Shown piece by piece: positions 4,069 to 61,555 of a stretch of 64,000 bases of DNA. Each line of letters opens with the position of its first letter. Position 1 is the stretch's first letter. Origin of the DNA: a phage. The DNA lies in sequence record OZ346187.1; one strand, 5' to 3'. A program made the position numbers and the translations under genes. The notes below the pieces were generated by a model, which was not told where the DNA came from, searched no databases, and saw nothing but the letters and a program-made list of their open reading frames with translations.

Positions 4069-7000
4069 ATGAGTATGTGGAATTTTGACTTTGAGGCCTC
4101 AGGTCTTCTGGACGAGGAAGATCTTTACTACCATTGTGGCCTGTTTAAAGAGTTGAATAAAAATAATTTTATGTTGTTTTTGCCTATCAATGATAGATCT
4201 CATTACAGTGAAGAGGAGGTTGAAAAAGCAAAACAATTTATGCTGGCAAAGCAAGATATCTATCCTAGCTGCTCTGTCCGTATTGCGGATTTCAGCCAGC
4301 TTGAATGGTGGTTAACCGGGAACTCCGATTGGTCACCCACATCATTAAGTTGTCACAACTGTTTTAGTTATGACTTTATCTTGATGGAGAAGCTGTCTGG
4401 TATTCATTTTGATATGTTCCGTGATCCCAAGTGTATGGGGACAATCAATAATCATCAGGTGAACCTGTTCGACACTCTGCCAATGAGTCGTATACTATGG
4501 CCCGACAGACCGTTACCTAAAGGATGCCCTGATTCTGTATACAATCCTGTTACAAAACGTATGCAGCAGGTAGGTCCTCATGGCCTAATGGCGTGGGGGT
4601 ACGCTTTAGGAAACCAGAAGGTTAAAATTGATGACTGGAGAAATTTACCTCTGTGGAAGTATGTTGATCGTGTATTCGAGGACGTTATCATCCAGGAGCT
4701 GCTCTGGAAAGAGCTGGTAGCGGAATCAAAAGGTGTATTCTACGGCAAATCTGACATGCAGAACTTTATGTACGATCCAGCCAAAGAGAAGCCGAAAGGG
4801 TTCAAGAAGATTACCTGGAAGAATGCATTACGCCGAGGCATGCTGCAGCACTTCCTGATGGAGCTGCAGGCCCGTCAGGGTGTATACTTCGACATAGATG
4901 GAGCTATTGCTTTACGTGACCGTTGCGATGCGTGGATGAAAGAAATCGCTGATCGTGTTGAACCACAACTACCTTTAAAAGAGCTGTCAATGTCTCAGCG
5001 GCCCAAGTTCCCTGAAAAGCCGTTTAACCAAGACGGGACAATCTCTAATAATGGTTGGAAATGGTTAAAAGATAAGCTTGGCTATCCTGTAGACATGAGT
5101 GCTTTAGAGTTCAAAGCCCCGCCTAAGCGAGCATTTACCTCTACAGGAGATGTCAGCAAGATGGGGATAAAATGGTGTGAAGAGATGGGCTGCAAAGACC
5201 CCGATAAGATGGCTGATTTCTTGAGAGGCTATATTAAGGGCACCTCCACACCACAACCCTTACCTAAAGAGCTGATGGATCAGGCAATAAGTGATCTGCA
5301 GCAGAAGCGAATGCCTGACTGCAAGATACCTATGAAAATCAGCAATCAGGACGACATCAAGCGATACCTAATCAGTGCTGGTTGGCTCCCAACAATGTGG
5401 AGAACTAAAGATGTAACTAAAGACAGCAAGAAGAAAGCTTTACCTGATGCAGATGTTGATGCACGAGTATATGCATATATGGACGAGCTTTTGGAGTCAG
5501 AGTATTGTGACCTAATTATCAACTTCTGGAACAAAACTGATGCTAAGTTCCAGACAACCGTGCACAAGTTCCGAAGCTTTCCTAACTCCGAAAGGATTAA
5601 AAAGGAAGTATTCGGGAAAATACGTAGAAAAGCCAGGGCACTTATTACTTCTCCGCAACTGAAAGATACGTTTGGACACCTATGCCCAAATCTTGAAAAA
5701 TTGAACGGAGAGATGGCTAAAGATATCGTCTTGTGGTTATCATTGCGAAACCGCAGATCGGTCCTTGATCCAATCAAGGAGGATAAGGTTGATACTGGTC
5801 TTCTTAATCACCCACGTTTGAAGATTGACCATAAGCTTCCTGCTAAAAGCTCTGGATTAACAAACACTTCCAGACAGAAACACAGTATTTGTGCAAACAT
5901 GCCTAAACCATCTCCTAAAGTGGTTATGGGTAAAGAGATGCGTAGTCTGTGGGGTGTTCCTCCGGGATACTTTGAGATCGGTATTGACGGGTCCAACTTA
6001 GAGCAGCTTATCGGGGCTTGGGGTGCCTTTGAGTTCGACAACGGCCTGTATTATGATGTTGTAAGTAATGGCGATGCACACTGTTATTCAGGAGATACAC
6101 AAATTCTCACGGAGAAAGGGTGGGTGAGGTTTGAAGATCTTGATCCGGGAACACAAGTGTTCCAGTACGATCACAACACCTCGTCAATGAACCTTGTTAC
6201 TCCATTAAATTACGTTAAGCGTAGTTATTGTGGGGATATGTATCATTTCCACAACAGTAGTGTGGATTTTATGGTTACAGATCAACACAGGATGCTGACT
6301 GTGGATCACAGAAGCAATAAATTGTTTGAAGATTTGGCAAAAGACCTGAAAGCAGGTAAAGGGTCTAATTCAGGAAGAAGGTTTATCCATGCGGCAGAGT
6401 TTTATGGGAATACAACCTTATCTCCTGCCCAGGTTAATTTGCTTATTGCTATTCACGATGATGGGCACTTGCATACAAATAAGGACGGCAGCATCGTGTG
6501 CAGGATTCAGGTCGGAAAGGGAAGAAAAGTTGCAACGCTTTTAGATACTTTTTCTGCTCTAAGCCTTAGTTATGTAGAGCAGAGCGGGAAAACCACAAAA
6601 GGGGGCTTACTGGCGAGAAGGTTCCAATTCCACGTTCCGTCCTGGGTATTTGAGTTTTTGGACAACAATAAGGATTTCACCTATAACCTGATGAACCTTG
6701 ATAAAGAATCTAAAAACCTGTTTATAGCTTCTTTATCTAACTGGGACGGGTGGGTATCTTCCGAAGGTGGAAAGGTTGCTTACTACTCCCAGGCCGAGTG
6801 CAGGAAGAAATCTGTAGAGGTGGTGTCTGCGCTGGCTACTCAGTGTGGTTTACGGAATAATACGGTGGCGATTCACAAAAAAGGTCGTGCCGTGCAGCAC
6901 AGAATCACAATTGGTAGCAAACAGAGAGCAGGGTTGCTGACACTATCTAAAGAGTCTGTCGAGGTGAGCGGTTCTTTGGTTTATTGCGTTACCGTCCCTT

Positions 7001-7401
7001 CTGGAGCAATCATTGTGAGAAGGAATGGTAAAGTGGCAGTGTGCGGTAACTGTAATAACGCCAAAGCTTACTCTTCTGTAGCAGGCAAGGAGATTTCCCG
7101 TAACGATGGTAAACCTATCACGTATGGGGTTATGTATGGGGCACAAAAAGATAAAGTTGCAGATATGCTGGACATCTCCCCAGAGTTGGGACAAAGGGTA
7201 ATCGATGCACTCTGGGATGCCAACCCAGGTCTTAAGGGGCGCAAAGAGGATCTGGAGAAATTCTGGGAAGCAACAGGTAAGAAGTTTATCTACTCTTTTG
7301 ATGGTCATGCTATCTGGACCCGATCTAAACACTCTTTACTTAATGCATACCAACAAAATGGCGGTGCATCGTTGTGTGACTTAGTTGGAATACTCATGCA
7401 C
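4069..7401 (+). CDS. DNA polymerase, family A, exon 1 (contains an in-frame intein; ORF reads through to a stop at 7467 inside the intron)
   Basis: 3'-5' exo motifs FDFEASGL (Exo I) and CHNCFSYDF (Exo II); motif B-like RNDGKPITYGVMYGAQ; ORF ends ...GILMH just before the expected HDE of motif C. Confidence 0.85.
6082..7050 (+). mobile_element. intein with LAGLIDADG homing-endonuclease domain inside DNA polymerase
   Basis: Starts CYSGDTQILTEKG (intein block A), TDQHRML (block B TxxH), LAGLIDADG-like LLIAIHDDGH and LFIASLSNWDGW, ends ...VAVCGN followed by Cys (+1). Confidence 0.65.
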
Positions 7402-7737
7402 CACCAGATGGTGAAGCGTGGGTGGTACGATGAAGGTGTTCGTCGTATTATTTATTACCATAAATAACATTGTGGCTTCATAGAGTAATCTATGTCGAAT
7501 AACCTCTTTAACTGCGGGAAGCCTAAACCTTATGGCAAGGTAATCCGCAACGAAGCGCTCAAAAGAGCGAACGCTCAGAGGCCATTCCGAAAGGAAGTAG
7601 ACCAGCAAGTGCGGTCGAAATGGGAGGATTCCTGTGGTTGCTTATCATAGGAATATGAGATGGTCCGATCCTACGTGAAAACGTATGGCTATGCACGTAA
7701 TGGTGCGGGGTAGCTTAACGACCTACCTGAACTATTG
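7402..7737 (+). mobile_element. group I intron without ORF, interrupting DNA polymerase at motif C (boundaries approximate)
   Basis: P-like AACTGCGGGAAG, Q-like AATCCGCAAC, R-like CTCAGAGGCCA, S-like AGATGGTCCGATCC; joining exons gives ...ILMH-DEYQLQV. Confidence 0.6.
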
Positions 7738-12507: not shown

Positions 12508-12535
12508 GCCCTGCCCGAAAGGGTGGGGCATTTTT
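12508..12535 (+). terminator. rho-independent terminator hairpin GCCCTGCCC-GAAA-GGGTGGGGC + T-run (copy 2 of 2)
   Basis: Same hairpin as at 1129-1155, directly downstream of the SSB-like gene. Confidence 0.6.
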
Positions 12536-12554: not shown

Positions 12555-12971
12555 ATGACATTAGAAGATATCATTGTTAAACCTGAGAACTATGACCAAT
12601 ACAACCTGTCAACTCAATCTGTAGACCTTGGATGCGCCACAGTTAGTGCGTGGCTGGTTAATGGAAAAGAGCTGGACAAGTGCTTAGAAGCTCACATGTC
12701 TGTTAACAAGTTTCTGGATGAAAATACTCACTGGCTTGAGGGTGCTGGAGTATATGCTTCATGGTTGGAGAGCATGGGCTTTGACTATCAATCTGATGAA
12801 GGGTGGTGGAGCTATCTGGCTATCTGTCCAGAAACACTGCAATGCTTCATGAAATACTCTGAAGATCTTGAGTACCGAGCGGTGGTTGATAGTGCTATTG
12901 CCCGTTATAGCCGTAAACCTTTTTCCCATGACATTAAAACTGTGGAAGAATTTGTTGAAGTTTTCTGTTGA
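12555..12971 (+). CDS. hypothetical protein
   Basis: ORF with AGGAGA RBS. Confidence 0.5.
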   Translation: MTLEDIIVKPENYDQYNLSTQSVDLGCATVSAWLVNGKELDKCLEAHMSVNKFLDENTHWLEGAGVYASWLESMGFDYQSDEGWWSYLAICPETLQCFMKYSEDLEYRAVVDSAIARYSRKPFSHDIKTVEEFVEVFC

Positions 12972-12999
12972 CACAGGTTGAAAGGTGTGCAATTATAAC
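12968..12999 (+). promoter_or_regulatory. sigma70-like promoter (TTGACA -35; -10 around AATTATAAC)
   Basis: Consensus -35; A/T-rich -10 candidates at 17-20 nt. Confidence 0.45.
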
Positions 13000-13067
13000 T
13001 TCATAAAACGGGAGGACGCGATGAACGAAGAAAACTGGGATGTATAACTAACAGGAGACCACTGCCC

Positions 13068-13265
13068 ATGATTTATCGAATCCGTGTAAGAGAAGATGCA
13101 CCAGGCTGTTACTTTGACTGGCGTGGGTGGTGGTTTCTCCACCCAATGGATGGACTCACAGATAGAATGCTGGATGCTGCCCTTTATACAGATACCGACA
13201 TAGAATATAATCTCTATCTGAAGGACGGTATAGATAACGGTCTATTTGAAGCAATTCCTGTGTAA
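13068..13265 (+). CDS. hypothetical protein
   Basis: ORF with AGGAGA RBS. Confidence 0.45.
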   Translation: MIYRIRVREDAPGCYFDWRGWWFLHPMDGLTDRMLDAALYTDTDIEYNLYLKDGIDNGLFEAIPV

Positions 13266-13333: not shown

Positions 13334-13753
13334 ATGATCTATGAAATGCCAAAACTGATTCGTGACGATGCCCAAAACCACACCATTATTATGGGTAAAC
13401 GCATGAATATCCTTTGCCGTAACGATTTCTGTGGTGTAGAATACGTTGCAGACTACTTCGGTGAGAATGGTAAACACCCTGTTCAGTTCTTCCTTGACCA
13501 TGAGGATAACATTATCTGGGAGTTTGAAACTGAAGATATCCGCAACCTCTTCATCTTCCTCGGTGTCAAGGTTAAGGCCAATTTCGCGGAAGGTGAGTGC
13601 GACGATTGTGGATTTTATGAGGTGACAGACTTCTATCTCCCGAGTGGCAAGAACATTTACTATGAGAGTCACTTCGGAAACACCAACATGCCTCAAAGCT
13701 GGGAAGAATTTTTCAGTATCGTAGAAGAGGAGCTGGCATACCGTGATTATTGA
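13334..13753 (+). CDS. hypothetical protein (Cys-rich)
   Basis: ORF with GGAGAA RBS. Confidence 0.5.
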   Translation: MIYEMPKLIRDDAQNHTIIMGKRMNILCRNDFCGVEYVADYFGENGKHPVQFFLDHEDNIIWEFETEDIRNLFIFLGVKVKANFAEGECDDCGFYEVTDFYLPSGKNIYYESHFGNTNMPQSWEEFFSIVEEELAYRDY

Positions 13754-14201
13754 TACTGTAAAGGGAGATTTAATCTCCCTTTTTAAGAGCGGTGCTGGTC
13801 ACCTAATCCACGGTTGTAACTGCTTCCACACAATGGGTAAGGGCATAGCAAAACAGATTGCCCGTGAGTTTCCTCAAGCATTGTCAGCCGACAAAGAGAC
13901 CAGACACGGTTGCCTAAGTAAACTGGGTGCGTTCTCCCGATGGGAGCACTTATCTCCGAGAGGTATTGTCTACGGAATCAATCTGTATACTCAGTTCTAC
14001 CCAGGGCCTAATGCTGAATATTTCTCAATCCTGAAAGGCTTTGAGCTAGTCAATGAGGTATTCGAGGGATCGACTTTACCATTCTACATCCCTAAGATCG
14101 GATGCGGCATAGGCGGTTTGAAGTGGGAGCACGTAGAGGACGTTATTAACCTCGCCACTTTTGATATAGATATTATCGTGGTGGAGTACAAAGAGTGTTG
14201 A
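13743..14201 (+). CDS. macro-domain protein (ADP-ribose binding/hydrolase-like)
   Basis: LIHGCNCFHTMGKGIAKQIA and IPKIGCGIGGL resemble the two glycine-rich macro-domain signature loops. Confidence 0.55.
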   Translation: MIIDTVKGDLISLFKSGAGHLIHGCNCFHTMGKGIAKQIAREFPQALSADKETRHGCLSKLGAFSRWEHLSPRGIVYGINLYTQFYPGPNAEYFSILKGFELVNEVFEGSTLPFYIPKIGCGIGGLKWEHVEDVINLATFDIDIIVVEYKEC

Positions 14202-14226
14202 CAGCTGACTTTTGAGATGGTATAGT
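14198..14226 (+). promoter_or_regulatory. sigma70-like promoter TTGACA-17-TATAGT
   Basis: Consensus -35 and good -10 upstream of ORF 14258. Confidence 0.55.
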
Positions 14227-15702: not shown

Positions 15703-16028
15703 CAGAGATCATCATTTCAACTGCAGGGTATGTGTTCCTGACAATCATTGCACTGACCATTTTGGTGGTGGTATATGGAATTGTTATTCTCCCTATTCTT
15801 GAGACAATTAGTTTGTGTCGGTGTTGGAGAAAGGCTTACGGTCCACAGCCGTGGAAGGACTGGCCCCACCTGGTGCACATAGCGTTCTCTTATGCTTATG
15901 ATCACGCCAGCAGTGCATGCATAACCGGGTATCACGCCCACAACTGGAGCTGGGAAGGGTTGAGGAAATGGAATGTTACAAAGACCATACCTCTGCGCAT
16001 GTACAAACCTAAAAACAAAGACAGCTGA
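15699..16028 (+). CDS. putative membrane protein
   Basis: Hydrophobic N-terminal segment YVFLTIIALTILVVVYGIVILPIL. Confidence 0.45.
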   Translation: MTEIIISTAGYVFLTIIALTILVVVYGIVILPILETISLCRCWRKAYGPQPWKDWPHLVHIAFSYAYDHASSACITGYHAHNWSWEGLRKWNVTKTIPLRMYKPKNKDS

Positions 16029-16092: not shown

Positions 16093-16344
16093 TATTTCAC
16101 CGGGCCAGATATTTTAAAATTCTTAGAAAATCAGGTCTTTGAAATGAAAAACAGATCGAGTACCGAAAGAGGATGTACAAATTTTCTGATAATAATGGAC
16201 TTATTGTTATAAAAGGTCAGAGGTAAGCTGGGAAAGTTCTGGTAGAAGGGTGAGAGTATGTGCGGAAAAATCTGGAATAGTGACTTAAAGTACGGTGCGA
16301 ACGATAAGGAATTGAGCAGCACATCTTATCGTGCCTGTATTTTG

Positions 16345-16730
16345 TGTGGATGAATGAGAATACCTATCATTGTGAGAACCATTATCATTACGGGCAATTT
16401 AACAGTACCGATTATGCGCACCACTGGCGATACATACAGGGATTGATAACATGGGTTACTGTTTACGCACATAACAATTGTATTTCTTACTATTTGTGTG
16501 GGCGTTTAGACGTTGACGGTCAGAAGTCTGCAGGTTAATATCTAATCTATTGGCTGCTAACTATATCCCACACAAATAGTAAGAAATACAATTGTTATGT
16601 GCGTAAACAGTAACCCATGTTATCAATCCCTGTATGCATGCCAGTGGTGCGCATAATGGGTATTATGTTAAATTGCCCGTAATGATAATGGTTCTCACAA
16701 TGATAGGTATTCTCATTCATCCACACAAAA
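16345..16730. repeat. long near-perfect inverted repeat (~160-bp arms 16345-16504 and 16569-16730, ~65-bp spacer)
   Basis: Arms are reverse complements; ORF-track ORFs 16344-16538(+) and 16595-16786(-) translate the same peptide (NENTYHCENHYHYGQFN) from both arms. Confidence 0.85.
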
Positions 16731-16959
16731 TAGATTGCAAATGTTGTGCCACTGTGTGAACGGCCTGGCCTATTAATTTGCCTCACTGCCTTGATATTTG
16801 AGAATTATTATAAGAATGAGAAGTATTCCCATTTCGTCCGCCTGGCAGCACTCCTGTAGGTCCTGCAAGGACTCTAGCTGAAAGCTAGACCCTTCGGGCC
16901 TCCCTGCAGGTCAGGTCAAAATCGTGGTAGAATTGGGCCTGTTCAGATATTTCTGGCTG

Positions 16960-34086: not shown

Positions 34087-35349
34087 TCAGCAACTACAAC
34101 TTCCATAGTGCTTAACTCGCTCGATAACTTCCGCTTGCTTACCTTTATTGTAAGGACGGGAGTTAGGACTGGAAAGGTATCCAGACACACGTCGAATTAC
34201 ACTGATCGTTCCCTCTTCATGGTTTCCACACTCTGGGCATACAAAGCCTTTAGCTGTTGCACTGAACTCACCAGAGAAACCACACTTGAGACATTTATCC
34301 ACAGGTTGGTTAATACCAAAATACATAATATGTTTATACCCGAAGTCAACAAGAGCCTCTAAAGCATCCAGGTTGTTTTTCAGGTTAGGTGTCTCTACGT
34401 ATCCAATGTTGCCACCAGAGGAGATCATAGCAAAACCTTCCTCATACTCCCACTTATCAAAAGGAGAGCTATTTATCCACACTGGCTGATGGAAACTGTT
34501 GGTGAGATATTCATGCTCGTGCTTTAACACTTCTGGATATTCACGATCCAGACAGGTTGCAGCTTTATAGCATAGACTCTCAGAAGGAGTGCCGTACAAG
34601 CTAAATGCTAGTCTACTTTCCTTCTTGTATCGCTCACAAGCATCTCTCATGTGCTGAAGGATTCCAAGAGCTAAAGCCTTGTCACCTTCTCTGCCCAAAA
34701 TCTGACAGGTTTCATACACACCAATATACCCAATACTGATGGAAGCGTACCCGTCATAGAAGAGTTTATCAATACTTTCTTCGGGATCCAGGCGAGCAAG
34801 AGCGCCTTCACACCACATGATGGGGTTCTGCCCTGCCTTTGTTCCTTTTAGACGGTTAACCCTTACAAGGTGAGCCTCGTATGCAAGATCCAAGTATTCG
34901 TCAAGAACTGCAAAGAAATCAACACATTCCGTCTTAGCTTTTGCCGCAATCATTGGCAGGTTAAGGCTAACAACACCCAAGTTGAATCTGCCGAGGTATT
35001 TCTCCTCACCTGTTTCCAAGTCATTGTATTTGCTAAGAAAACTCCGGCAACCCATACTCGTTACTTTGCCATCTGTCGAGCCTGTCACTTTACGATTTAG
35101 TGGAACAGAAACAAAGTCAGGATAAATCCGCTCTGCAGAGCATTCCAGAGCTAATCGTTTCAAATCATAGTTAGGATCTCCGGGGTTCATGTTGACACCC
35201 TCTTCTAGGAAGAACAGCACTTTAGGGAACACAGGTGTGATACGTTCTTCACCAAGACCCATTTTGTGGACTTTCAAGTAATTTTTGGTAATCATTCTAC
35301 CAAAGACCGAGGTATCCAGTCCTAAACTTAATGTGATGAATGGAGTCTG
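34087..35349 (-). CDS. nrdD: anaerobic ribonucleotide reductase NrdD, exon 2
   Basis: Glycyl-radical motif RRVSGYL; strong similarity to the T4 NrdD C-terminal half; exon begins QTPFITLSLG upstream of ORF-track start 35295. Confidence 0.85.
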   Translation of the reverse strand, partial: QTPFITLSLGLDTSVFGRMITKNYLKVHKMGLGEERITPVFPKVLFFLEEGVNMNPGDPNYDLKRLALECSAERIYPDFVSVPLNRKVTGSTDGKVTSMGCRSFLSKYNDLETGEEKYLGRFNLGVVSLNLPMIAAKAKTECVDFFAVLDEYLDLAYEAHLVRVNRLKGTKAGQNPIMWCEGALARLDPEESIDKLFYDGYASISIGYIGVYETCQILGREGDKALALGILQHMRDACERYKKESRLAFSLYGTPSESLCYKAATCLDREYPEVLKHEHEYLTNSFHQPVWINSSPFDKWEYEEGFAMISSGGNIGYVETPNLKNNLDALEALVDFGYKHIMYFGINQPVDKCLKCGFSGEFSATAKGFVCPECGNHEEGTISVIRRVSGYLSSPNSRPYNKGKQAEVIERVKHYGSCSC

Positions 35350-36146
35350 CTGTCTCCTCCCTGTGTTTCCACAGGGCCAGACTATCTATTACTCTACTTC
35401 AATAAGATAATAACCCTTTATTGTGAGATGCTTACCTTCGGCATTTCCTTCGATAGCCCTGTGAACGTTACCTACGTTCAAATTTAAGGCTTTTGCACAG
35501 GCGTAGAGTGAAGGATATTCACCCACCAAGATTTTCCCTTTGTATGCCTGCACTTTCCTATAGCACTTACCTGGACAAAGTCCTGTTCGGAAAGCATGTC
35601 TCTTATTATCTTCCGGCAAAACCCACTCTAGGTTAGACGGATGATCATTCAATGTATTGCCATCTTTATGATTCACTTCCCAGTTTTCAGGGTCTTCTGG
35701 GACATCTGGCAAACAATACAAGGCAACAACCCTTGAGGTTTGGATTCGAATCTTTTTACCTTTGTGGTTGAAAGAGTACATATAACGGCGTTTAACATGC
35801 TTATTACCTTTTCCATAACCTCCCCACAATATTGGGTGCAGCATTCCACGTTTTCCGTATACGTTTCCAACTTCATCAATCACATAGTTTGATTCTTCAC
35901 CATTAAGAATGATCTTTTTCATAGAGCCTCTCCATTTCGAAGTTAGTATTTCAACTAACCCCTACACTACTTGGTTCAGAAATGTTTGTCAAGCATCTCT
36001 GCCTTTCGTTAGTCGTTACAACCGTTCCAACTCCTGTAAGAACTAGTCACGGGATTGGCATAGCTTTCGCCTTAGCGTTCCCCGTTAGCCGGATTTACCG
36101 ACCCCTCTTATGAGGTTAGGAGAGTTTTACAACGGCCAGTTTGTTA
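35350..36146 (-). mobile_element. group I intron in nrdD carrying an HNH homing-endonuclease ORF
   Basis: 5' exon ends GGU, intron starts UAA; ACGGGGAAC and CAAUCCCGUG elements as in the T4 td/nrdD introns; S-like UAGAUAGUCUGG at the ORF stop; intron ends in G before CAG. Confidence 0.8.
35389..35922 (-). CDS. HNH homing endonuclease (intron-encoded)
   Basis: EVNHKDGNTLNDHPSNLEWV...NKRHA HNH motif; lies entirely inside the nrdD intron. Confidence 0.75.
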   Translation of the reverse strand: MKKIILNGEESNYVIDEVGNVYGKRGMLHPILWGGYGKGNKHVKRRYMYSFNHKGKKIRIQTSRVVALYCLPDVPEDPENWEVNHKDGNTLNDHPSNLEWVLPEDNKRHAFRTGLCPGKCYRKVQAYKGKILVGEYPSLYACAKALNLNVGNVHRAIEGNAEGKHLTIKGYYLIEVE

Positions 36147-37007
36147 ACCGTTGACAGAAGTTAACGTATTGATTTGATAGAGCAAAGTCTGCATGCTGTC
36201 AAATACGTCTTTATCTGTCATTTGCATTGCAACAGTCTCAGCATCTGGCAACCAATGTTCCTGGCAAAATTTAAGGTTCTTCTCATAAGTCGCCTCAGCA
36301 TACTGTGCCAAATAATGGTCAATATGGCTCATAGTCTGACCCCCATATTGAGCACTAGCTACTGCACTAGAGATTTGGCTAAGGATTGTTGTTGCAACCC
36401 CTATTGACTTCGGCTTACTGACATGGGCGTTACCAATGTTGAATCCGTTTTCCAACATATCTGGATAATTTACCAAACAACAGTTTGTTAACGGACTGAT
36501 CAAGTAGTCAAGATCATGCACATGGATGAAGCCTTTATTGTGCTCTTCTGAGACACGGTCTGGCAGGATCTGTGTTGATGCAAGGTGTTTGCTAAGGATG
36601 CCTGCAAGCAGGTCACGATGAGTGTGTACATGATTGGTAGGCTTATTTGCGTTTTCTTTTGTAAATTCATCACAAGTTCGATCCAAGAAGCCACTAATAT
36701 CTGCAAGCAGTTTTCCACCTGCCTCTCTGTTATTATCTCTTGTCTGTCTATACTGGATGTATTCTCTGGCTGCACATTTTAAACCCATATCCATAAGAGC
36801 ATCTTCAACAAGGATATGGATATTTTTTACAGAGATCGTGCACTGGTCGGTTGGTAGATTGTTAGCAACAACTTCATTAACCGCACAAGCGATCCGGTAA
36901 GCTTCTTCTTCAGTATGTCCAGACTCAAGTAAGGCGGACTCTGCCGCCTTGATCACCTTAATTCCGTTATAGACCTCTTCTCTACCGTCCCGTTTTACAA
37001 CTTTCAC
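36147..37007 (-). CDS. nrdD: anaerobic ribonucleotide reductase NrdD, exon 1
   Basis: GFIHVHDLDY, TNCCLVNYPDMLENGF, KSIGVATTILSQ match T4 NrdD; ends ...TLTSVNG at the splice site. Confidence 0.85.
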
Positions 37008-53976: not shown

Positions 53977-54690
53977 TTAAATATACTCTGTTACATCCTT
54001 GAAGCTCGAAGGCTTCATAATCTTACCTTTACTGTCAAGGAATATAATAGCTTTATTACCGTTGTAGAACTCCTCTTTAGCAACGAAACCTTCGTAGCGA
54101 CCACCAAAACGACGCTCAAGATCTTCAATCTCTAACTCTATGAGCAATTCAGTAGACATATCTGCACTGGCACCGTGAGAATATCGTAGATGGTTGATCC
54201 GTGCAAACTTGCTGTCATTAGATTTGAGAACCTTCCGCATCATCCCACACACATCGCCGCGAAGCTGGAACAGCAAAGCTGTTGACAACTCCGCTAAGCG
54301 GTAAGCTGACGCTCTTTGCTTGGATGTGTTTTTCGCAGCGATCAGTGTATCATAGAACTCACCGATCTTGAACTTAAGACCTCGTGGATTATCAAACAGG
54401 TTTGACCACTTTTCGTGATTATCATTAACAAGATAAGCGGCATAACTTGTGACAACGTGAAGATCGCAGGCCTCTTTTAGCAGGTGATCTCCACCATCAC
54501 CTTTCTCCAGCTCTTCCAAAACCTCATTGAACTCTTCCTCAATGAAGCTAAGCTGTAATTCGAATGGTGTGTATGATTTTTTCACTTTAGCTGCCACACG
54601 GTTCCAGTTTTCCACCCAGTTGGCAGACCAAAGGTAGTTTTCAGGCTGAGACAGTTTTTCCAGGTTGTCGATCAGTTTAGTATTCAGCAT
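53977..54690 (-). CDS. hypothetical protein, possibly MazG-like NTP pyrophosphohydrolase
   Basis: Acidic helix FIEEEFNEVLEELEKGD...KEACDL resembles the MazG EExxE...D motif; weak. Confidence 0.35.
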   Translation of the reverse strand: MLNTKLIDNLEKLSQPENYLWSANWVENWNRVAAKVKKSYTPFELQLSFIEEEFNEVLEELEKGDGGDHLLKEACDLHVVTSYAAYLVNDNHEKWSNLFDNPRGLKFKIGEFYDTLIAAKNTSKQRASAYRLAELSTALLFQLRGDVCGMMRKVLKSNDSKFARINHLRYSHGASADMSTELLIELEIEDLERRFGGRYEGFVAKEEFYNGNKAIIFLDSKGKIMKPSSFKDVTEYI

Positions 54691-54703
54691 TGAAGGTCTC
54701 CTT

Positions 54704-55465
54704 TTAAAGTTCCATAAAGTTTTCTACAGTTTCAATAAATGCTTTATCAGAGAAAGCGTCAACAGCACCGTTAAACCATACAGGGATCCCGCGATCCTCA
54801 TATTGATAAAGGTCGCTACGTGAAATGCCACTTCCATCTGCACTCTGCGAGTCATACTTGTTTACAATCAGCAGTTTTGTGCCTTTACAAGTAGCAGGAA
54901 ACAATTCCCAGTTAAAATTAATAACTGTGTTAGAACAACCTACTAGGATCACCATATCATTGCTTGTGAGAGATGTCAACAGGTCATACATGTCTGTATA
55001 CTTAGGAGCAACCTCACCGAAGAACACTACATTGGGCTTAACCCAGGTATACTTGCCTGTATCTACCTCCGTGTATCCGATATTTTTAATTACATCATTA
55101 CCTTCAGCATCTTCGTAGGTGATTTCAGGCAAATACCCGTGGACATGTAAAATATCTTCATGTTTTACACCAGCACGCTCCAGCAAATCATCTACATTGG
55201 TGGTAAGGTTGATCACACGACCAGACCAGCGGGAATACCACTCAGCGATCCGAAGATGTGCAAGGTTAGGATCAACACTGCCCAGAGCTACACGACGTGC
55301 ATTGTAAAAGTCATGCACCTTATAGTAATTCTTGGCAAAGGTGTGAATGTTGCACACCTCATCGATGCTGAAATTCTCCCACATTGCAGTGCTACCAGAT
55401 CGGAAAGTGGGAATACCAGATTCAGCGCTCAAACCAGCACCGGAGATAATAATCAGTCGTCGCAT
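54704..55465 (-). CDS. Sir2-family NAD-dependent protein (sirtuin-like)
   Basis: GAGLSAESGIPTFR matches the sirtuin NAD-binding motif; HG and VVFFGE downstream; no CxxC zinc module seen. Confidence 0.7.
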   Translation of the reverse strand: MRRLIIISGAGLSAESGIPTFRSGSTAMWENFSIDEVCNIHTFAKNYYKVHDFYNARRVALGSVDPNLAHLRIAEWYSRWSGRVINLTTNVDDLLERAGVKHEDILHVHGYLPEITYEDAEGNDVIKNIGYTEVDTGKYTWVKPNVVFFGEVAPKYTDMYDLLTSLTSNDMVILVGCSNTVINFNWELFPATCKGTKLLIVNKYDSQSADGSGISRSDLYQYEDRGIPVWFNGAVDAFSDKAFIETVENFMEL

Positions 55466-55473
55466 AAGTGTCC

Positions 55474-55824
55474 TCAGTAGATGTTTTGTTTAATCTCTAT
55501 TCCAAACTTCTTGAATGAGTCAGCAGCAAGCATAAATTTACGAGCTGCCGATGGATTAGAAGTATGCACGAAAATAATCACGTTGTCAATAAGTGGTGGC
55601 TTTCCGAATACAAGTTTCTCCTCTAGCGCAGAGAAGCAGTCGTACCCTTCAAGCACTTCACCTAGATCATTGTCAAAATACCACTCAGATACGCGTCTGT
55701 AGAGCTTTCTCTTATCATTAAGAAAATCCATAAACTCAGAAGAATTCTTTAGCCACAGAGCGTCTGGGAGTCCATAATCTGACGGATCTCTAAAATCATC
55801 AAGCCACACAATCCACTTCTTCAT
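55474..55824 (-). CDS. hypothetical protein
   Basis: ORF-track ORF. Confidence 0.45.
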   Translation of the reverse strand: MKKWIVWLDDFRDPSDYGLPDALWLKNSSEFMDFLNDKRKLYRRVSEWYFDNDLGEVLEGYDCFSALEEKLVFGKPPLIDNVIIFVHTSNPSAARKFMLAADSFKKFGIEIKQNIY

Positions 55825-56756
55825 TGCATATAGTCCTCGTTGTGGAAATAGTAGTCCAGTATCTCACGACGCTCCTGCTCTAATAAGCAATTCCACACAT
55901 CTTCTGTATAGTTGCTACGAATAAATTTTACCATACCGTAAAACTCTTCGTCAACACGTTTAAAGATATCATCATCCCAAATCTTCCAAGCTTTACCCCT
56001 CATTACTGCCTTCTGTGCCAGATAGTATGGAGACTTGATCTTCAGCTGCAGATCATAAGGGTAGTAAGGCTTACGAATCATATACCCTTCACCTCTTGTT
56101 TCTGCAGCTAATTCTTTTGCATAGCTGAACGGAATTTCACGCACAGTGTTAGGACGTTTTGCACCAAGGTATTTGGCAATCCCATCTAAAGCTGCTTCTG
56201 GTAGCATTATTCCAGAATCATTATATCTGCAACCTATCAAATATGCGCCATGGTCTTCTTGAACAATATGCGGATCTGAAGGGTGACAAATTTCAAACAT
56301 GAATGTCATGTTTTCATTGCCCATAACCTTCTTGATAAGATCTAAATTACCACATTGCTCTTGGATGGTTTCCTTTGCAAGGTTACAATATGGAGAATCA
56401 AGAGACCCGGTTGTTGAGAACAATAGGTCACCTTTATGAGATGATACCACACCAAGGAATCCGTTCTTTTTCTCTACCGCAGTCACAAGCTTATTGTCAG
56501 GCAGGTTGGTGGAGTTTTCTCCCAAGTTAAACACTTTTGTGAAGGGCCATGCCACAACATTTCCTTCATTACCTACAACAATGCCTCGGCACTCCAGTAA
56601 ACGAGGGGACAAATGCCATAAATTGTTGTAAAATACTTTTCTAGCATATTTATAGATCTTTAACCCGAGATCTGGGTAATACCTACTGGTTGCAAGACCT
56701 TTGTCAACTAGGTCGTCTGCATTAAAATACTTCATTATATGTTCCTCATTTGTCAT
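55821..56756 (-). CDS. putative RNA ligase (nucleotidyltransferase KxNG)
   Basis: VEKKNGFLG fits the ligase lysine motif K-x-(D/N)-G; a DNA ligase is encoded separately. Confidence 0.5.
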   Translation of the reverse strand: MTNEEHIMKYFNADDLVDKGLATSRYYPDLGLKIYKYARKVFYNNLWHLSPRLLECRGIVVGNEGNVVAWPFTKVFNLGENSTNLPDNKLVTAVEKKNGFLGVVSSHKGDLLFSTTGSLDSPYCNLAKETIQEQCGNLDLIKKVMGNENMTFMFEICHPSDPHIVQEDHGAYLIGCRYNDSGIMLPEAALDGIAKYLGAKRPNTVREIPFSYAKELAAETRGEGYMIRKPYYPYDLQLKIKSPYYLAQKAVMRGKAWKIWDDDIFKRVDEEFYGMVKFIRSNYTEDVWNCLLEQERREILDYYFHNEDYMQ

Positions 56757-60742: not shown

Positions 60743-60817
60743 GCCCTGTTAGCTTAGTGGATAAAGCAGCGGCCTTCTAAGCCGTTGACACTGGTTCGAG
60801 TCCAGTACGGGGTGCCA
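60743..60817 (+). tRNA. tRNA-Arg (anticodon TCT), CCA encoded
   Basis: Cloverleaf: acceptor GCCCTGT/ACGGGGT, D-arm GCTT..AAGC, anticodon loop CTTCTAA, T-arm ACTGG-TTCGAGT-CCAGT. Confidence 0.8.
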
Positions 60818-60821
60818 AATT

Positions 60822-60908
60822 GGGGAGTTATCCCGTAGAGGTAGCGGTGTAGACTGTAAATCTATTGTCATTGCGACTCGGGTGGTTCGACTCCACCACT
60901 CCCCACCA
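60822..60908 (+). tRNA. tRNA-Tyr (anticodon GTA), long variable arm, CCA encoded
   Basis: Acceptor GGGGAGT/ACTCCCC, anticodon arm GTAGA-CTGTAAA-TCTAT (GACUGUAAAUC as in E. coli tRNA-Tyr), T-arm GGTGG-TTCGACT-CCACC. Confidence 0.8.
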
Positions 60909-61022
60909 AATTTATATTTTTAGATGCATAAATAATACAGATAATGGCATTGATATTTATCGTCGTTTATACTAGTCACTAACTGCTCGAAAATCAGTGT
61001 CATTATCAGTATAATTTATAAA

Positions 61023-61113
61023 GGAGGGTAGGGAGCAATGGTGCTCAAGCGGTCTTGAAAACCGTCCCGTTGAGGATGACTCGATGATGGTTCGATTCCA
61101 TTACTCTCCGCCA
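61023..61113 (+). tRNA. tRNA-Ser (anticodon TGA), type II, CCA encoded
   Basis: Acceptor GGAGGGT/ACTCTCC, anticodon arm GCGGT-CTTGAAA-ACCGT, long variable arm, T-arm GATGG-TTCGATT-CCATT. Confidence 0.75.
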
Positions 61114-61211
61114 CATTGTTGACCTTGTAATTAAGCGAAAGCCGGAAGCAGAACCGGATTATCAAATGTTACAGTCGTCATCGCCGACTAGCAACATGGT
61201 CAACATACTGA

Positions 61212-61310
61212 GCTAGGTAAGCCCTTTGGCAAGGGCGAGGATTTTTAATCCTGAAAATAGACGAGGTAGTCGTTGAATACATAGGTGGTTCGATTCCATC
61301 ACCTAGCACC
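61212..61310 (+). tRNA. atypical tRNA-like gene (possible tRNA-Lys TTT with ~30-nt extra arm) or tRNA pseudogene
   Basis: Perfect acceptor GCTAGGT/ACCTAGC, D-arm GCCC-TTTGGCAA-GGGC, T-arm GGTGG-TTCGATT-CCATC, but 47 nt between D and T arms; loop TTTTTAA on a 4-bp stem. Confidence 0.4.
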
Positions 61311-61315
61311 TTTTT

Positions 61316-61391
61316 GCTGATGTAGCACAATCGGTAGTGCAATTGATTTGTAATCAATAGGTTGTAGGTTCAAGTCCTGCCATCAGCACCA
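61316..61391 (+). tRNA. tRNA-Thr (anticodon TGT), CCA encoded
   Basis: Acceptor GCTGATG/CATCAGC, D-arm GCAC..GTGC, anticodon arm ATTGA-TTTGTAA-TCAAT, T-arm GTAGG-TTCAAGT-CCTGC. Confidence 0.8.
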
Positions 61392-61392
61392 A

Positions 61393-61467
61393 GGCCCTGT
61401 AGCTGGAAGGTTCAAGCAAGCGACTCATAATCGCCAGACGGTGGTTCAATTCCACCCAGGGCCACCA
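61393..61467 (+). tRNA. tRNA-Met or Ile2 (anticodon CAT), elongator-type, CCA encoded
   Basis: Acceptor GGCCCTG/CAGGGCC with G1-C72 pair, anticodon loop CTCATAA, T-arm GGTGG-TTCAATT-CCACC. Confidence 0.75.
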
Positions 61468-61478
61468 AATAGTAAATA

Positions 61479-61555
61479 CTCCGCGTAGCTCAGCTTGGTA
61501 GAGCGCCTGATTTGGGATCAGGAGGTCGAGTGTTCGAATCACTCCGTGGAGACCA
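61479..61555 (+). tRNA. tRNA-Pro (anticodon TGG), CCA encoded
   Basis: Acceptor CTCCGCG/CGTGGAG, D-arm GCTC-AGCTTGGTA-GAGC, anticodon arm CCTGA-TTTGGGA-TCAGG, T-arm GAGTG-TTCGAAT-CACTC. Confidence 0.8.

Follow-up and report, generated by a model that had tools for sequence, protein, structure and literature searches.

A stand-alone ALC1-like macrodomain in an rV5-like phage, assigned to the Tk.4/AdfM family and predicted to act against DarTG2

The stretch of DNA analysed here (64,000 nucleotides of record OZ346187.1, hereafter the window) comes from an rV5-like Escherichia myovirus (Vequintavirus) that is 98.6% identical to the BASEL phage Bas57, and it encodes a stand-alone macrodomain protein of the ALC1-like (TARG1/DarG/SCO6735) class, a predicted hydrolase. 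Our analysis suggests that the protein most likely removes ADP-ribose from the DNA of the phage and would thereby defeat DarTG2, while the gene is not tied to the Sir2 gene of the same phage. The features concerned are the following.

12508-12529: strong terminator-like hairpin, upstream of both promoter matches
12968-12996 and 13183-13211, plus strand: two sigma-70-like promoter matches (10/12 each; consensus scan)
13727..13732, plus strand: Shine-Dalgarno-like GAGGAG, 10 nt 5' of the GTG start (read from the sequence)
13743..14201, plus strand: macrodomain CDS, Tk.4/AdfM family, PHROG 335 (ORF, Pfam, PHROG, T4 Tk.4 alignment, AlphaFold2 (AF2), Foldseek)
13809..13850, plus strand: Loop 1, HGCNCFHTMGKGIA, residues 23-36 (family alignment, SCO6735 register)
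13980..13994, plus strand: NLYTQ motif, residues 80-84 (family, cross-family and HMMER alignments)
14097..14120, plus strand: Loop 2 (phosphate-binding), IGCGIGGL, residues 119-126 (family alignment)
54704..55465, minus strand: Sir2 gene (PF02146, E=7e-28)

The macrodomain ORF (from the ORF list and the sequence, stop included) begins with GTG and encodes 152 aa, and from this start its N-terminus matches those of the homologues residue for residue (T4 Tk.4 starts with MIVKYIKGD). The 3'-terminal part of the preceding ORF (13334..13753) contains the Shine-Dalgarno-like sequence and overlaps the start of the macrodomain gene by 11 nt, an overlap that is annotated likewise in Bas57 and Bas58. 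A first-pass annotation had described a 152-aa ORF with two glycine-rich macro loops, the coordinates of which proved exact and both motifs of which were found. It had also called the protein stand-alone, which is correct because the macrodomain (residues 1-150 of 152) occupies the entire protein.

The macrodomain call itself was borne out, with a margin that excludes chance. The profile search against macro-domain families that had been proposed gave a match to Pfam Macro (PF01661) at 28.5 bits (E=1.6e-6), above the gathering cut-off of that family (22), and PHROG 335 was matched at E=2.9e-60 and 205.6 bits, compared to 223.2 bits for T4 Tk.4. Structure prediction, which could have spoken against a macro fold, yielded an AF2 model (pLDDT 96.9, pTM 0.91) that, together with Foldseek, displays the three-layer alpha/beta/alpha architecture of macrodomains. 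The hallmarks of the superfamily (N26 after strand 2, G32-K33-G34 and G120-C-G122-I-G-G125) are present and are invariant or nearly so in 80 homologues. Of the 166 Foldseek matches in the PDB at E<=0.001, solved macrodomains head the list, with TARG1, Poa1p, the Taq and Mtb DarG, BT1257 and SCO6735 at the top; these are all ALC1-like (TM 0.72-0.77) and occupy ranks 1-20 and 23, the probability being 1.00 and the TM ~0.75 for the TARG1, Poa1p and DarG macrodomains. MacroD-type and viral macrodomains rank lower (E>=3e-6). When PDB sequences were compared with a profile of the phage family, BT1257 (8e-19), SCO6735 (5e-17), TARG1 (1e-16) and DarG (3e-16) were found. By sequence and structure alike, the protein thus belongs to the ALC1-like class, its nearest neighbours not being of the MacroD, viral X-domain or PARG types. 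No second macrodomain was found in the 64-kb window by tblastn and profile search.

Within this class, the closest characterised relative is found in phage T4. Tk.4 of T4 aligns with the window protein over its full length (153 columns, 40% identity, E=8e-42), and PHROG 335 is matched by T4 Tk.4 and PhiKZ gp104 as well. The Tk.4 of Krischvirus Skers, the gene of which lies between vs and tk in a T4-like arrangement, shares 70% identity with the window protein but only 44% with T4 Tk.4, and therefore the window protein falls inside the spread of syntenic Tk.4 orthologues. Judged by its sequence, the gene represents, in Vequintavirus, the Tk.4/AdfM family of phages (AdfM standing for 'anti-DarT factor, macrodomain'), homologues of which occur in 2727 phage records from many hosts. 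It has the traits of that family, being a single-domain orphan with PHROGs of unknown function as its neighbours. Like T4 Tk.4, the protein is a stand-alone macrodomain of ~150 aa with NLYTQ...PGPN, a Gln at the position of the DarG Lys and an HGCNCFHTMG loop. It differs in that the T4 gene lies between vs and tk.3, whereas the window gene sits among Vequintavirus-specific small ORFs after phrog_8157; moreover, the sequences have diverged by 60%, and the anti-DarTG2 phenotype is that of T4 alone. The DNA of T4 is glucosyl-hydroxymethylated.

T4 Tk.4 received the name AdfM in 2025, for the DarTG2 sensitivity that its knockout brings about in T4. Transposon screening of the whole T4 genome under DarTG2 gave tk.4 as the single significant hit, and a clean tk.4 knockout was DarTG2-sensitive; this evidence is genetic and comes from a preprint, DNA de-ADP-ribosylation being the inference of its authors (bioRxiv 10.1101/2025.11.20.689424). 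The earlier suggestion to challenge the protein with DarT-like toxins therefore points in the right direction, since the T4 homologue is conditionally required to withstand DarTG2. On the host used as reference in these screens, E. coli K-12, 31/31 TA sites of bas54_0092 and 45/46 of T4 tk.4 were disrupted (bas54_0092 being considered orthologous by its identical gene lengths, gene order and 11-nt overlap), and the dispensability of both genes fits an accessory counter-defence function. DarTG2 is not among the screens of the Bas54 library, and a literature search found no paper in which Vequintavirinae were tested against DarTG2.

The other protein called AdfM, gp104 of the chimallivirus PhiKZ, is likewise an orphan phage macrodomain of PHROG 335, and in vitro it takes the ADP-ribose added by DarT2 off DNA, while in cells it relieves DarT2 toxicity (Cell Rep 2026, PMC13309987). 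Its identity to the window protein is only 20%, it has retained the FPTK lysine of DarG, it reaches 133 bits on the PADLOC DarG model (where the window protein scores 51 bits), and it enters the phage nucleus by import. Vequintaviruses presumably lack such a nucleus. The name AdfM covers two distinct branches, i.e. a PhiKZ type with the DarG lysine and a T4/Vequintavirus type with an invariant Gln.

This Gln is central to the predicted active site. Q84 falls in the column of the catalytic Lys of DarG (K80), of TARG1 K84 and of SCO6735 Gln85, and both N80 and Q84 are invariant in the 80 homologues. In Loop 1, H23, G24, N26 and the G32-K33-G34 loop correspond to H24, V25, N27 and K34 of SCO6735, with G24, N26, G34 and A36 invariant and H23 and G32 conserved in at least 90% of the homologues. 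In Loop 2, G120 (invariant) and G122 correspond to Gly126 and Gly128 of SCO6735, G122 and G125 are conserved in at least 90%, and G124 occupies the position of TARG1 Asp125. The complete SCO6735-type Gln site (Q85, N27, H24, G126, G128) is thus represented by Q84, N26, H23, G120 and G122, in a register (chain offset 20) that was confirmed with four residues named in the SCO6735 paper. The extended mobile loop of SCO6735 is missing, the loop of the window protein being 5 residues shorter and without a Lys (QFYPGPN vs QHGMKTGSKGAP). SCO6735 cleaves DarT-made thymidine-ADP-ribose on DNA and shields cells from DarT, and its Q85A, Q85E and N27S variants are inactive or almost so; the mutagenesis also took in K34 and H24, and G128E lowers activity (PMC9411070). 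The active site thus has the Gln of SCO6735 and is not DarG-like (Lys), and catalysis is probably of the SCO6735 type rather than the DarG type. The window protein is mildly acidic (net charge -3), whereas SCO6735, with its electropositive DNA groove, is basic (+6). As a case against DNA binding, net charge was dropped as uninformative, since the PhiKZ AdfM, which does act on DNA, lies further to the acidic side (-6).

Among solved structures, SCO6735 (5E3B) and BT1257 (2FG1/2AFC) are also the best profile matches, sharing with the window protein the catalytic-site Gln and its locking Asn, the His and the phosphate-binding loop (Gly126/Gly128). Cleavage of thymidine-linked ADP-ribose (T-ADPr) on DNA without a catalytic Lys is a feature of SCO6735. 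Both are, however, cellular proteins (SCO6735 is induced by DNA damage) of ~26% identity to the window protein, with a mobile loop that is ~5 residues longer and carries Lys89, and with a basic surface. TARG1/OARD1 (4J5R/4J5S), also a stand-alone macrodomain of ~150 aa, is the best Foldseek match (E=5e-10, TM 0.75-0.82); it reverses T-ADPr and U-ADPr, and the window protein is predicted to do likewise for T-ADPr. Unlike the window protein, TARG1 is eukaryotic, and its Lys84/Asp125 dyad is replaced by Q84 and G124 in the phage protein. Poa1p (6LFQ-6LFU), the yeast ADP-ribose-1''-phosphate phosphatase, is of the same class with good fold and sequence matches, but acts on a small-molecule substrate of tRNA splicing and is longer (~180 aa, with insertions); the name 'phosphatase' given to PHROG 335 probably derives from it.

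With DarG (5M31/5M3E/5M3I, 7OMU), the window protein has the ALC1-like fold (TM ~0.75) and the predicted substrate and reaction in common. It is nevertheless not a DarG antitoxin, an identity that fails on architecture, catalytic Lys and toxin linkage. At 152 aa, compared to ~330-340 aa for DarG, it lacks the C-terminal DarT-binding domain; the NCBIfam DarG equivalog is matched at 48.5 bits against a cut-off of 250, over model positions 2-143 of 338, and the PADLOC DarG model (at the score given above) over positions 3-141 of 329. The catalytic lysine of the DarG FPTK motif (K80 in Taq DarG) is replaced by Gln84, which is invariant in the phage family. Finally, no darT lies beside the macrodomain gene, the flanking ORFs being phage PHROGs of unknown function.

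The first-pass annotation had placed the gene in an early region. This is plausible, no more, given that a DnaB-like helicase and a series of small ORFs share its strand and that sigma-70-like sites are enriched in the consensus scan (20 found vs 10.8 +/- 4.4 in shuffles). The promoter matches at 12968-13211 are candidate starts of the macrodomain transcript. The upstream ORF is Cys-rich and belongs to phrog_8157 (177 phage records vs 2727 for the macrodomain); it has no Pfam match and no similarity to T4 Vs (E=0.057), of which it had been considered a possible homologue. As a conserved partner it was rejected, both on these record counts and because Krischvirus Tk.4 is preceded by vs instead. 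Domains of the NADAR, ART and Nudix types are absent from the 49 window ORFs scanned against Pfam, which comprise most of those of at least 100 aa. Some Vequintavirinae (Bas60-62) do have a NADAR protein, which acts against DarTG1.

The explanation that we consider probable, though by no means certain, is that the protein is an anti-DarTG2 macrodomain that removes ADP-ribose from phage DNA as an SCO6735-type orphan antitoxin. It would be made from a block of small, probably early, genes and would come into play once the DarTG2 of the host is triggered, at which point DarT2 would attach ADP-ribose to thymidine N3 within the TNTC motifs of phage ssDNA and so halt replication. The macrodomain is proposed to bind the ADP-ribose through its two glycine-rich loops and to cut the bond between ribose and thymine, upon which ADP-ribose would be freed and the DNA restored. 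The invariant Q84, locked by the invariant N26, may position the distal ribose and a water network, so that catalysis would proceed without a Lys as nucleophile or base. The general idea of the first-pass annotation, i.e. that the macrodomain protein removes ADP-ribose, seems right as a prediction of its activity.

Several observations bear on T-ADPr on single-stranded DNA as the probable substrate. Hydrolysis of thymidine-linked ADP-ribose on ssDNA has been described for TARG1, DarG, SCO6735 and PhiKZ gp104; among the human, Drosophila and bacterial hydrolases tested, T-ADPr and U-ADPr are cleaved by essentially only TARG1-like macrodomains, NADAR and most MacroD and ARH enzymes being inactive or showing negligible activity. 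Phage T5 is DarTG2-sensitive and its genome holds no macrodomain homologue (the family profile reaches at most 8.6 bits, compared to 45-167 bits for distant control macrodomains), which is consistent with an anti-DarTG2 role. ALC1-like macrodomains are promiscuous, accepting Glu-linked protein ADP-ribose, O-acetyl-ADP-ribose, ADP-ribose-1''-phosphate and RNA uracil-ADP-ribose, so the physiological substrate of the window protein could differ or be broader.

The Sir2-like gene that had been noted elsewhere in the window is real; the ADP-ribose axis that the first-pass annotation drew between it and the macrodomain gene is not supported. The two genes lie ~41 kb apart on opposite strands, i.e. 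neither adjacent nor in one operon, and Sir2 is part of a contiguous block of its own (pyrophosphohydrolase (phrog_671), Sir2, cREC (PF20274) and Rnl1-type RNA ligase), while a published survey describes this sirtuin clade as not macro-coupled. This Sir2 occurs in 1012 phage records vs 2727 for the macrodomain, so that at least 1715 of the latter (at least 63%) are without it; the make-up in hosts and lineages differs, and the distributions of the two genes are independent. In T5, a Sir2 of 57% identity occurs without a macrodomain. T4 carries Tk.4 and is not known to encode a Sir2. Distance, strand, the Sir2 module with its published description, the distributions and T5 led us to reject a coupling. 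A Sir2-linked, Poa1p-like clean-up of small molecules, with deacetylation of O-acyl-ADP-ribose or dephosphorylation of ADP-ribose-1''-phosphate or ADPr>P from tRNA repair (2'-phosphate removal) by Sir2, cREC and RNA ligase, is unlikely. Sir2 is indeed present in the same genome, Poa1p ranks high among the matches by sequence and by fold, and the KptA-like proposal published for these sirtuins implies an ADPr>P by-product that needs processing. Yet candidate enzymes for that processing (cREC and the pyrophosphohydrolase) are already found beside Sir2, the only known phenotype of the macrodomain family is directed against DarTG2, and the 'phosphatase' and 'O-acetyl-ADP-ribose deacetylase' labels on PHROG 335 and many GenBank records, which could be taken as support, are transferred names and not tested activities. 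A dual role, in which de-ADP-ribosylation of DNA is combined with clearing ADP-ribose-1''-phosphate, ADPr>P or O-acyl-ADP-ribose of the Sir2-cREC-RNA ligase module, is very unlikely; if true, two distant loci would form one NAD-dependent RNA-repair/detoxification pathway in rV5-like phages.

Other substrates can be weighed against DNA. That the protein counters nucleic-acid ADP-ribosyltransferases more widely (e.g. those acting on RNA uracil or other bases), with DarT2 as one target or not the main one, is unlikely: TARG1, DarG and SCO6735 do cleave uracil-ADP-ribose on ssRNA, at which the Gln-type SCO6735 beats DarG, and the spread over 2727 phage records and many hosts suggests pressure from more than one system, but the literature describes no bacterial defence acting through reversible U-ADPr on RNA, CmdT is reported to ADP-ribosylate RNA bases irreversibly, and tk.4 was recovered in the T4 screen specifically with DarTG2. 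SCO6735 and TARG1 also hydrolyse Glu/Asp-linked mono-ADP-ribose on proteins, and T4, as a carrier of Tk.4, encodes the ADP-ribosyltransferases Alt and ModA, which raises the thought that the protein undoes marks of host toxins on phage or host proteins, or tunes a phage enzyme in the manner of T4 Alt/Mod. This seems highly improbable, however, as the scanned window ORFs contain no ART domain, the Lys84/Asp125 dyad that TARG1 uses for protein substrates is missing and DarG-type enzymes are DNA-only. Least of all would we expect a mainly stoichiometric inhibitor that binds DarT2 or sequesters ADP-ribose signals without any need for catalysis. The catalytically dead SCO6735 Q85A (the strongest), DarG K80A and TARG1 K84A do inhibit DarT in vitro by interaction; still, the DarT-binding C-terminal domain of DarG is absent here, mutation of the catalytic Asn of the PhiKZ AdfM cuts its activity, and the phage family retains, without variation, every residue that SCO6735 needs for catalysis, which speaks for enzyme activity being under selection.

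The gene is thus a genuine, if unremarkable, member of a counter-defence family described only recently, with a predicted role. Should the anti-DarTG2 assignment be right, the rV5-like phages, often isolated and used as candidates for therapy and biocontrol of E. coli, would come equipped with a means of overcoming DarTG2, and this would help host-range prediction on pathogenic E. coli with DarTG. It would also provide a function for a gene that over 100 Vequintavirus genomes, and many of the phage records with a homologue, list as 'hypothetical protein' or under the wrong name of 'phosphatase' or 'O-acetyl-ADP-ribose deacetylase'. With their invariant Gln, the AdfM proteins of the T4/Vequintavirus type would therefore be natural test cases for the proposed lysine-independent de-ADP-ribosylation of thymidine.

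The macro gene encodes a 152-aa protein from a GTG start at 13743..14201 (+), as the first-pass annotation had placed it, and both motifs quoted there are present (HGCNCFHTMGKGIA, residues 23-36; IGCGIGGL, residues 119-126). The start is sound, since the N-terminal residues (MIIDTVKGDL) line up with those of homologues; a Shine-Dalgarno sequence (GAGGAG) lies 10 nt 5' of the GTG, and the gene shares its first 11 nt with the end of the upstream ORF, as is also annotated in relatives. The surrounding 3 kb shares 98.6% identity with Escherichia phage MaxTheCat (BASEL phage Bas57), whose orthologue bas57_0089 is annotated as "hypothetical protein", and the macro gene region is 92-98% identical in ~100 other rV5-like phages (genus Vequintavirus). 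Orthologues are variously labelled hypothetical protein, macro domain protein, phosphatase or O-acetyl-ADP-ribose deacetylase. Around the gene, the following features were found:

12508-12529, strong terminator-like hairpin, upstream of the macro gene
12968-12996 and 13183-13211, sigma-70-like sites, upstream of the macro gene
13334-13753 (+), upstream ORF, Cys-rich (CRNDFC ... CDDC), phrog_8157
14198-14226, sigma-70-like site (11/12 match), overlapping the macro gene stop codon

Sigma-70-like sites occur at about twice the frequency seen in shuffled sequence, and the arrangement is compatible with (but no proof of) early transcription of the macro gene by the host polymerase. All flanking ORFs fall in PHROGs without assigned function. 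The Cys motifs of the upstream ORF, which has no Pfam match, possibly form a zinc ribbon. Comparison with Vs led to its rejection as a Vs homologue, and it was likewise rejected as a partner of the macro gene, its homologues being confined to 177 records of Vequintavirus and Krischvirus phages (36-48% identity in Krischvirus), i.e. it is a lineage-specific neighbour. In Bas54 and Bas58, a putative homing endonuclease lies directly 5' of the orthologue of ORF 12555-12971; it is absent from the window and Bas57.

Several other features of the window were recorded. A large palindrome of ~395 bp (16338-16732, centre ~16535), made up of a near-perfect inverted repeat, lies in a stretch without ORFs of at least 100 aa, between the plus-strand small-gene block (last such ORF ending at 16028) and the first minus-strand ORF of this size (18781). 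Transposon screening of Bas54 (HIDEN-SEQ) found a ~2-kb intergenic region with zero tolerated insertions (bioRxiv 10.1101/2025.11.20.689424). Anaerobic ribonucleotide reductase (NrdD) is divided over two ORFs (34087-37007, minus strand) separated by an HNH endonuclease ORF, an arrangement suggestive of a homing-endonuclease insertion. The palindrome arms and NrdD parts are:

16338-16404 / 16666-16732, outer palindrome arms, 67 nt, 100% complementary
16430-16502 / 16567-16639, inner palindrome arms, 73 nt, 99%
34087-35295 (-), NrdD C-terminal and glycyl-radical domain
35389-35922 (-), HNH endonuclease
36144-37007 (-), ATP-cone and NrdD N-terminal domain

A cluster of seven tRNAs is predicted at 60743-61555 (+), with Arg-tct, Tyr, Ser, Thr, Met and Pro represented; one of the seven is an odd call (61212-61310; 99 nt, four-base anticodon atcc, no amino-acid assignment). 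The 1132-aa ORF at 4069-7467 (+), 3' of a DnaB-like helicase, has no Pfam match except a sub-threshold Hint_2 (residues 672-706), and may represent a replication protein that retains the remnant of an intein.

That the 152-aa protein is a stand-alone macrodomain, as first proposed from its glycine-rich loops, is borne out by profile, structure and PDB sequence searches. Pfam Macro (PF01661) scores 28.5 bits (gathering threshold 22), PHROG 335 matches over the full protein length (E=2.9e-60), and the AlphaFold2 model, built from an 80-sequence alignment, has a mean pLDDT of 96.9 and a pTM of 0.91. The top Foldseek matches in the PDB are TARG1 (E=5e-10, TM 0.75-0.82), Poa1p, the Thermus and Mycobacterium DarG macrodomains, BT1257 and SCO6735, whereas MacroD-type and viral X domains rank lower with weaker scores. 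PDB sequence searches returned the same set (chain 5m3i carries the name "RNase III inhibitor" in the sequence table, but its Foldseek description identifies it as the macrodomain of M. tuberculosis DarG). These results place the protein in the ALC1-like (TARG1-like) class.

In the family alignment of 80 sequences, G24, N26, G34, A36, N80, Q84 and G120 are invariant, and H23, C27, M31, G32, Y82, T83, G122 and G125 nearly so. The Q84 column holds the catalytic Lys in DarG (FPTK), TARG1 (K84) and PhiKZ gp104, versus Gln in T4 Tk.4, BT1257 and SCO6735, so that, judged by alignment, the active site is SCO6735-like rather than DarG-like. SCO6735, a Streptomyces coelicolor macrodomain without catalytic Lys or Asp, cleaves DarT-generated thymidine-ADP-ribose on DNA and shields E. 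coli and Streptomyces from DarT; its activity is abolished by Q85A and Q85E and nearly abolished by N27S, and its authors proposed that Gln85, locked by Asn27, places the distal ribose, with a backbone-held water as proton donor (PMC9411070). The numbering of the PDB chain differs by 20 from that in the paper; with this correction, H24, V25, N27, K34, Q85, K89, G126 and G128 are in register. The equivalents here are H23, N26, K33, Q84, G120 and G122; at the V25 position the window protein has G24, a minor change because the proposed role of V25 is through its backbone, and the longer mobile loop bearing K89 is absent.

In two recent studies, in which many hydrolases were tested, T-ADPr and U-ADPr were cleaved by TARG1-like macrodomains only. 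Taken together, the invariant residues, the Q84 alignment, the activity of SCO6735 and this specificity support a reading of the protein as a putative Gln-type DNA glycohydrolase acting on thymidine-ADP-ribose. Its net charge (-3, slightly acidic, compared to +6 for SCO6735) is uninformative on this point, because the more acidic PhiKZ AdfM is active on DNA. The biochemically characterised relatives are distant, and since ALC1-like enzymes are promiscuous, other or additional substrates (U-ADPr RNA, protein Glu-ADPr, OAADPr, Appr-1''-p) are possible beside or instead of thymidine-ADP-ribose.

The first-pass annotation also hinted at a link of the macrodomain to a Sir2-like gene in an ADP-ribose axis. 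The Sir2 gene is real, and lies in a contiguous block:

53977-54690 (-), phrog_671 pyrophosphohydrolase
54704-55465 (-), Sir2 (PF02146, E=7e-28; phrog_2162, E=1.5e-108)
55474-55824 (-), cREC domain protein (PF20274, E=9e-14)
55821-56756 (-), Rnl1-type RNA ligase (PF09511)

This block (53977-56756) fits the sirtuin neighbourhood described with "Escherichia phage V5" as prototype, for which a KptA-like RNA repair role was proposed, without coupling of the sirtuin to a macro gene (Iyer et al. 2022). The axis itself is unsupported, the two genes being ~41 kb apart on opposite strands, with Sir2 in its own block and differing distributions. Macro homologues occur in 2727 phage records (tblastn), mostly of T4-like phages, and this type of Sir2 in 1012, chiefly of T5-like phages and Vequintavirinae, so that at least 1715 macro-bearing records have no Sir2. 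The complete T5 genome encodes Sir2 (57% identity, E=1e-98) and no macrodomain (best tblastn E=0.75); with all filters off, the macro family profile reached at most 8.6 bits on T5, compared to 45-167 bits on PhiKZ gp104, Mtb DarG, SCO6735 and T4 Tk.4.

In T4-like phages, the macro homologue is Tk.4, adjoining vs. T-even phages were known to withstand DarTG2, a DNA-ADP-ribosylating defence, via an unknown factor, with T5 as the sensitive reference. In HIDEN-SEQ, tk.4 was the sole T4 gene with significant depletion on a DarTG2 host, and a clean knockout rendered T4 DarTG2-sensitive, hence its name adfM; this evidence, from a preprint, is genetic only, and removal of DNA ADP-ribose is its authors' inference (bioRxiv 10.1101/2025.11.20.689424). 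The sensitivity of T5, which has no macrodomain, fits a role as AdfM. A literature search found no published DarTG2 challenge of Vequintavirinae. According to the supplementary tables, T4 tk.4 (TA sites hit 45/46) and bas54_0092 (31/31) are both non-essential on K-12 (bioRxiv 10.1101/2025.11.20.689424), the latter being taken to be the macro orthologue on the basis of its length, its place in the gene order and the 11-nt overlap. PhiKZ gp104 (AdfM) removes the ADP-ribose that DarT2 attaches to a TNTC oligonucleotide, and neutralises DarT2 (PMC13309987). It matches PHROG 335, as the window protein does, but they share only 20% identity and gp104 is much nearer DarG (bit scores on the PADLOC DarG model: gp104 133, window protein 51, T4 Tk.4 36).

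With T4 Tk.4, the window protein shares 40% identity along its full length (E=8e-42). Its nearest relative outside Vequintavirus is Tk.4 of Krischvirus phage Skers (70% identity), which lies in a canonical locus (regB-vs.1-vs-tk.4-...-tk) and shares only 44% identity with T4 Tk.4, so that the divergence of the window protein is no greater than that seen among true Tk.4 orthologues. The macro gene was probably transferred between unrelated coliphage lineages, and its product is, by sequence, a member of AdfM/Tk.4, a phage counter-defence family named only recently, with a putative role of this kind in Vequintavirus.
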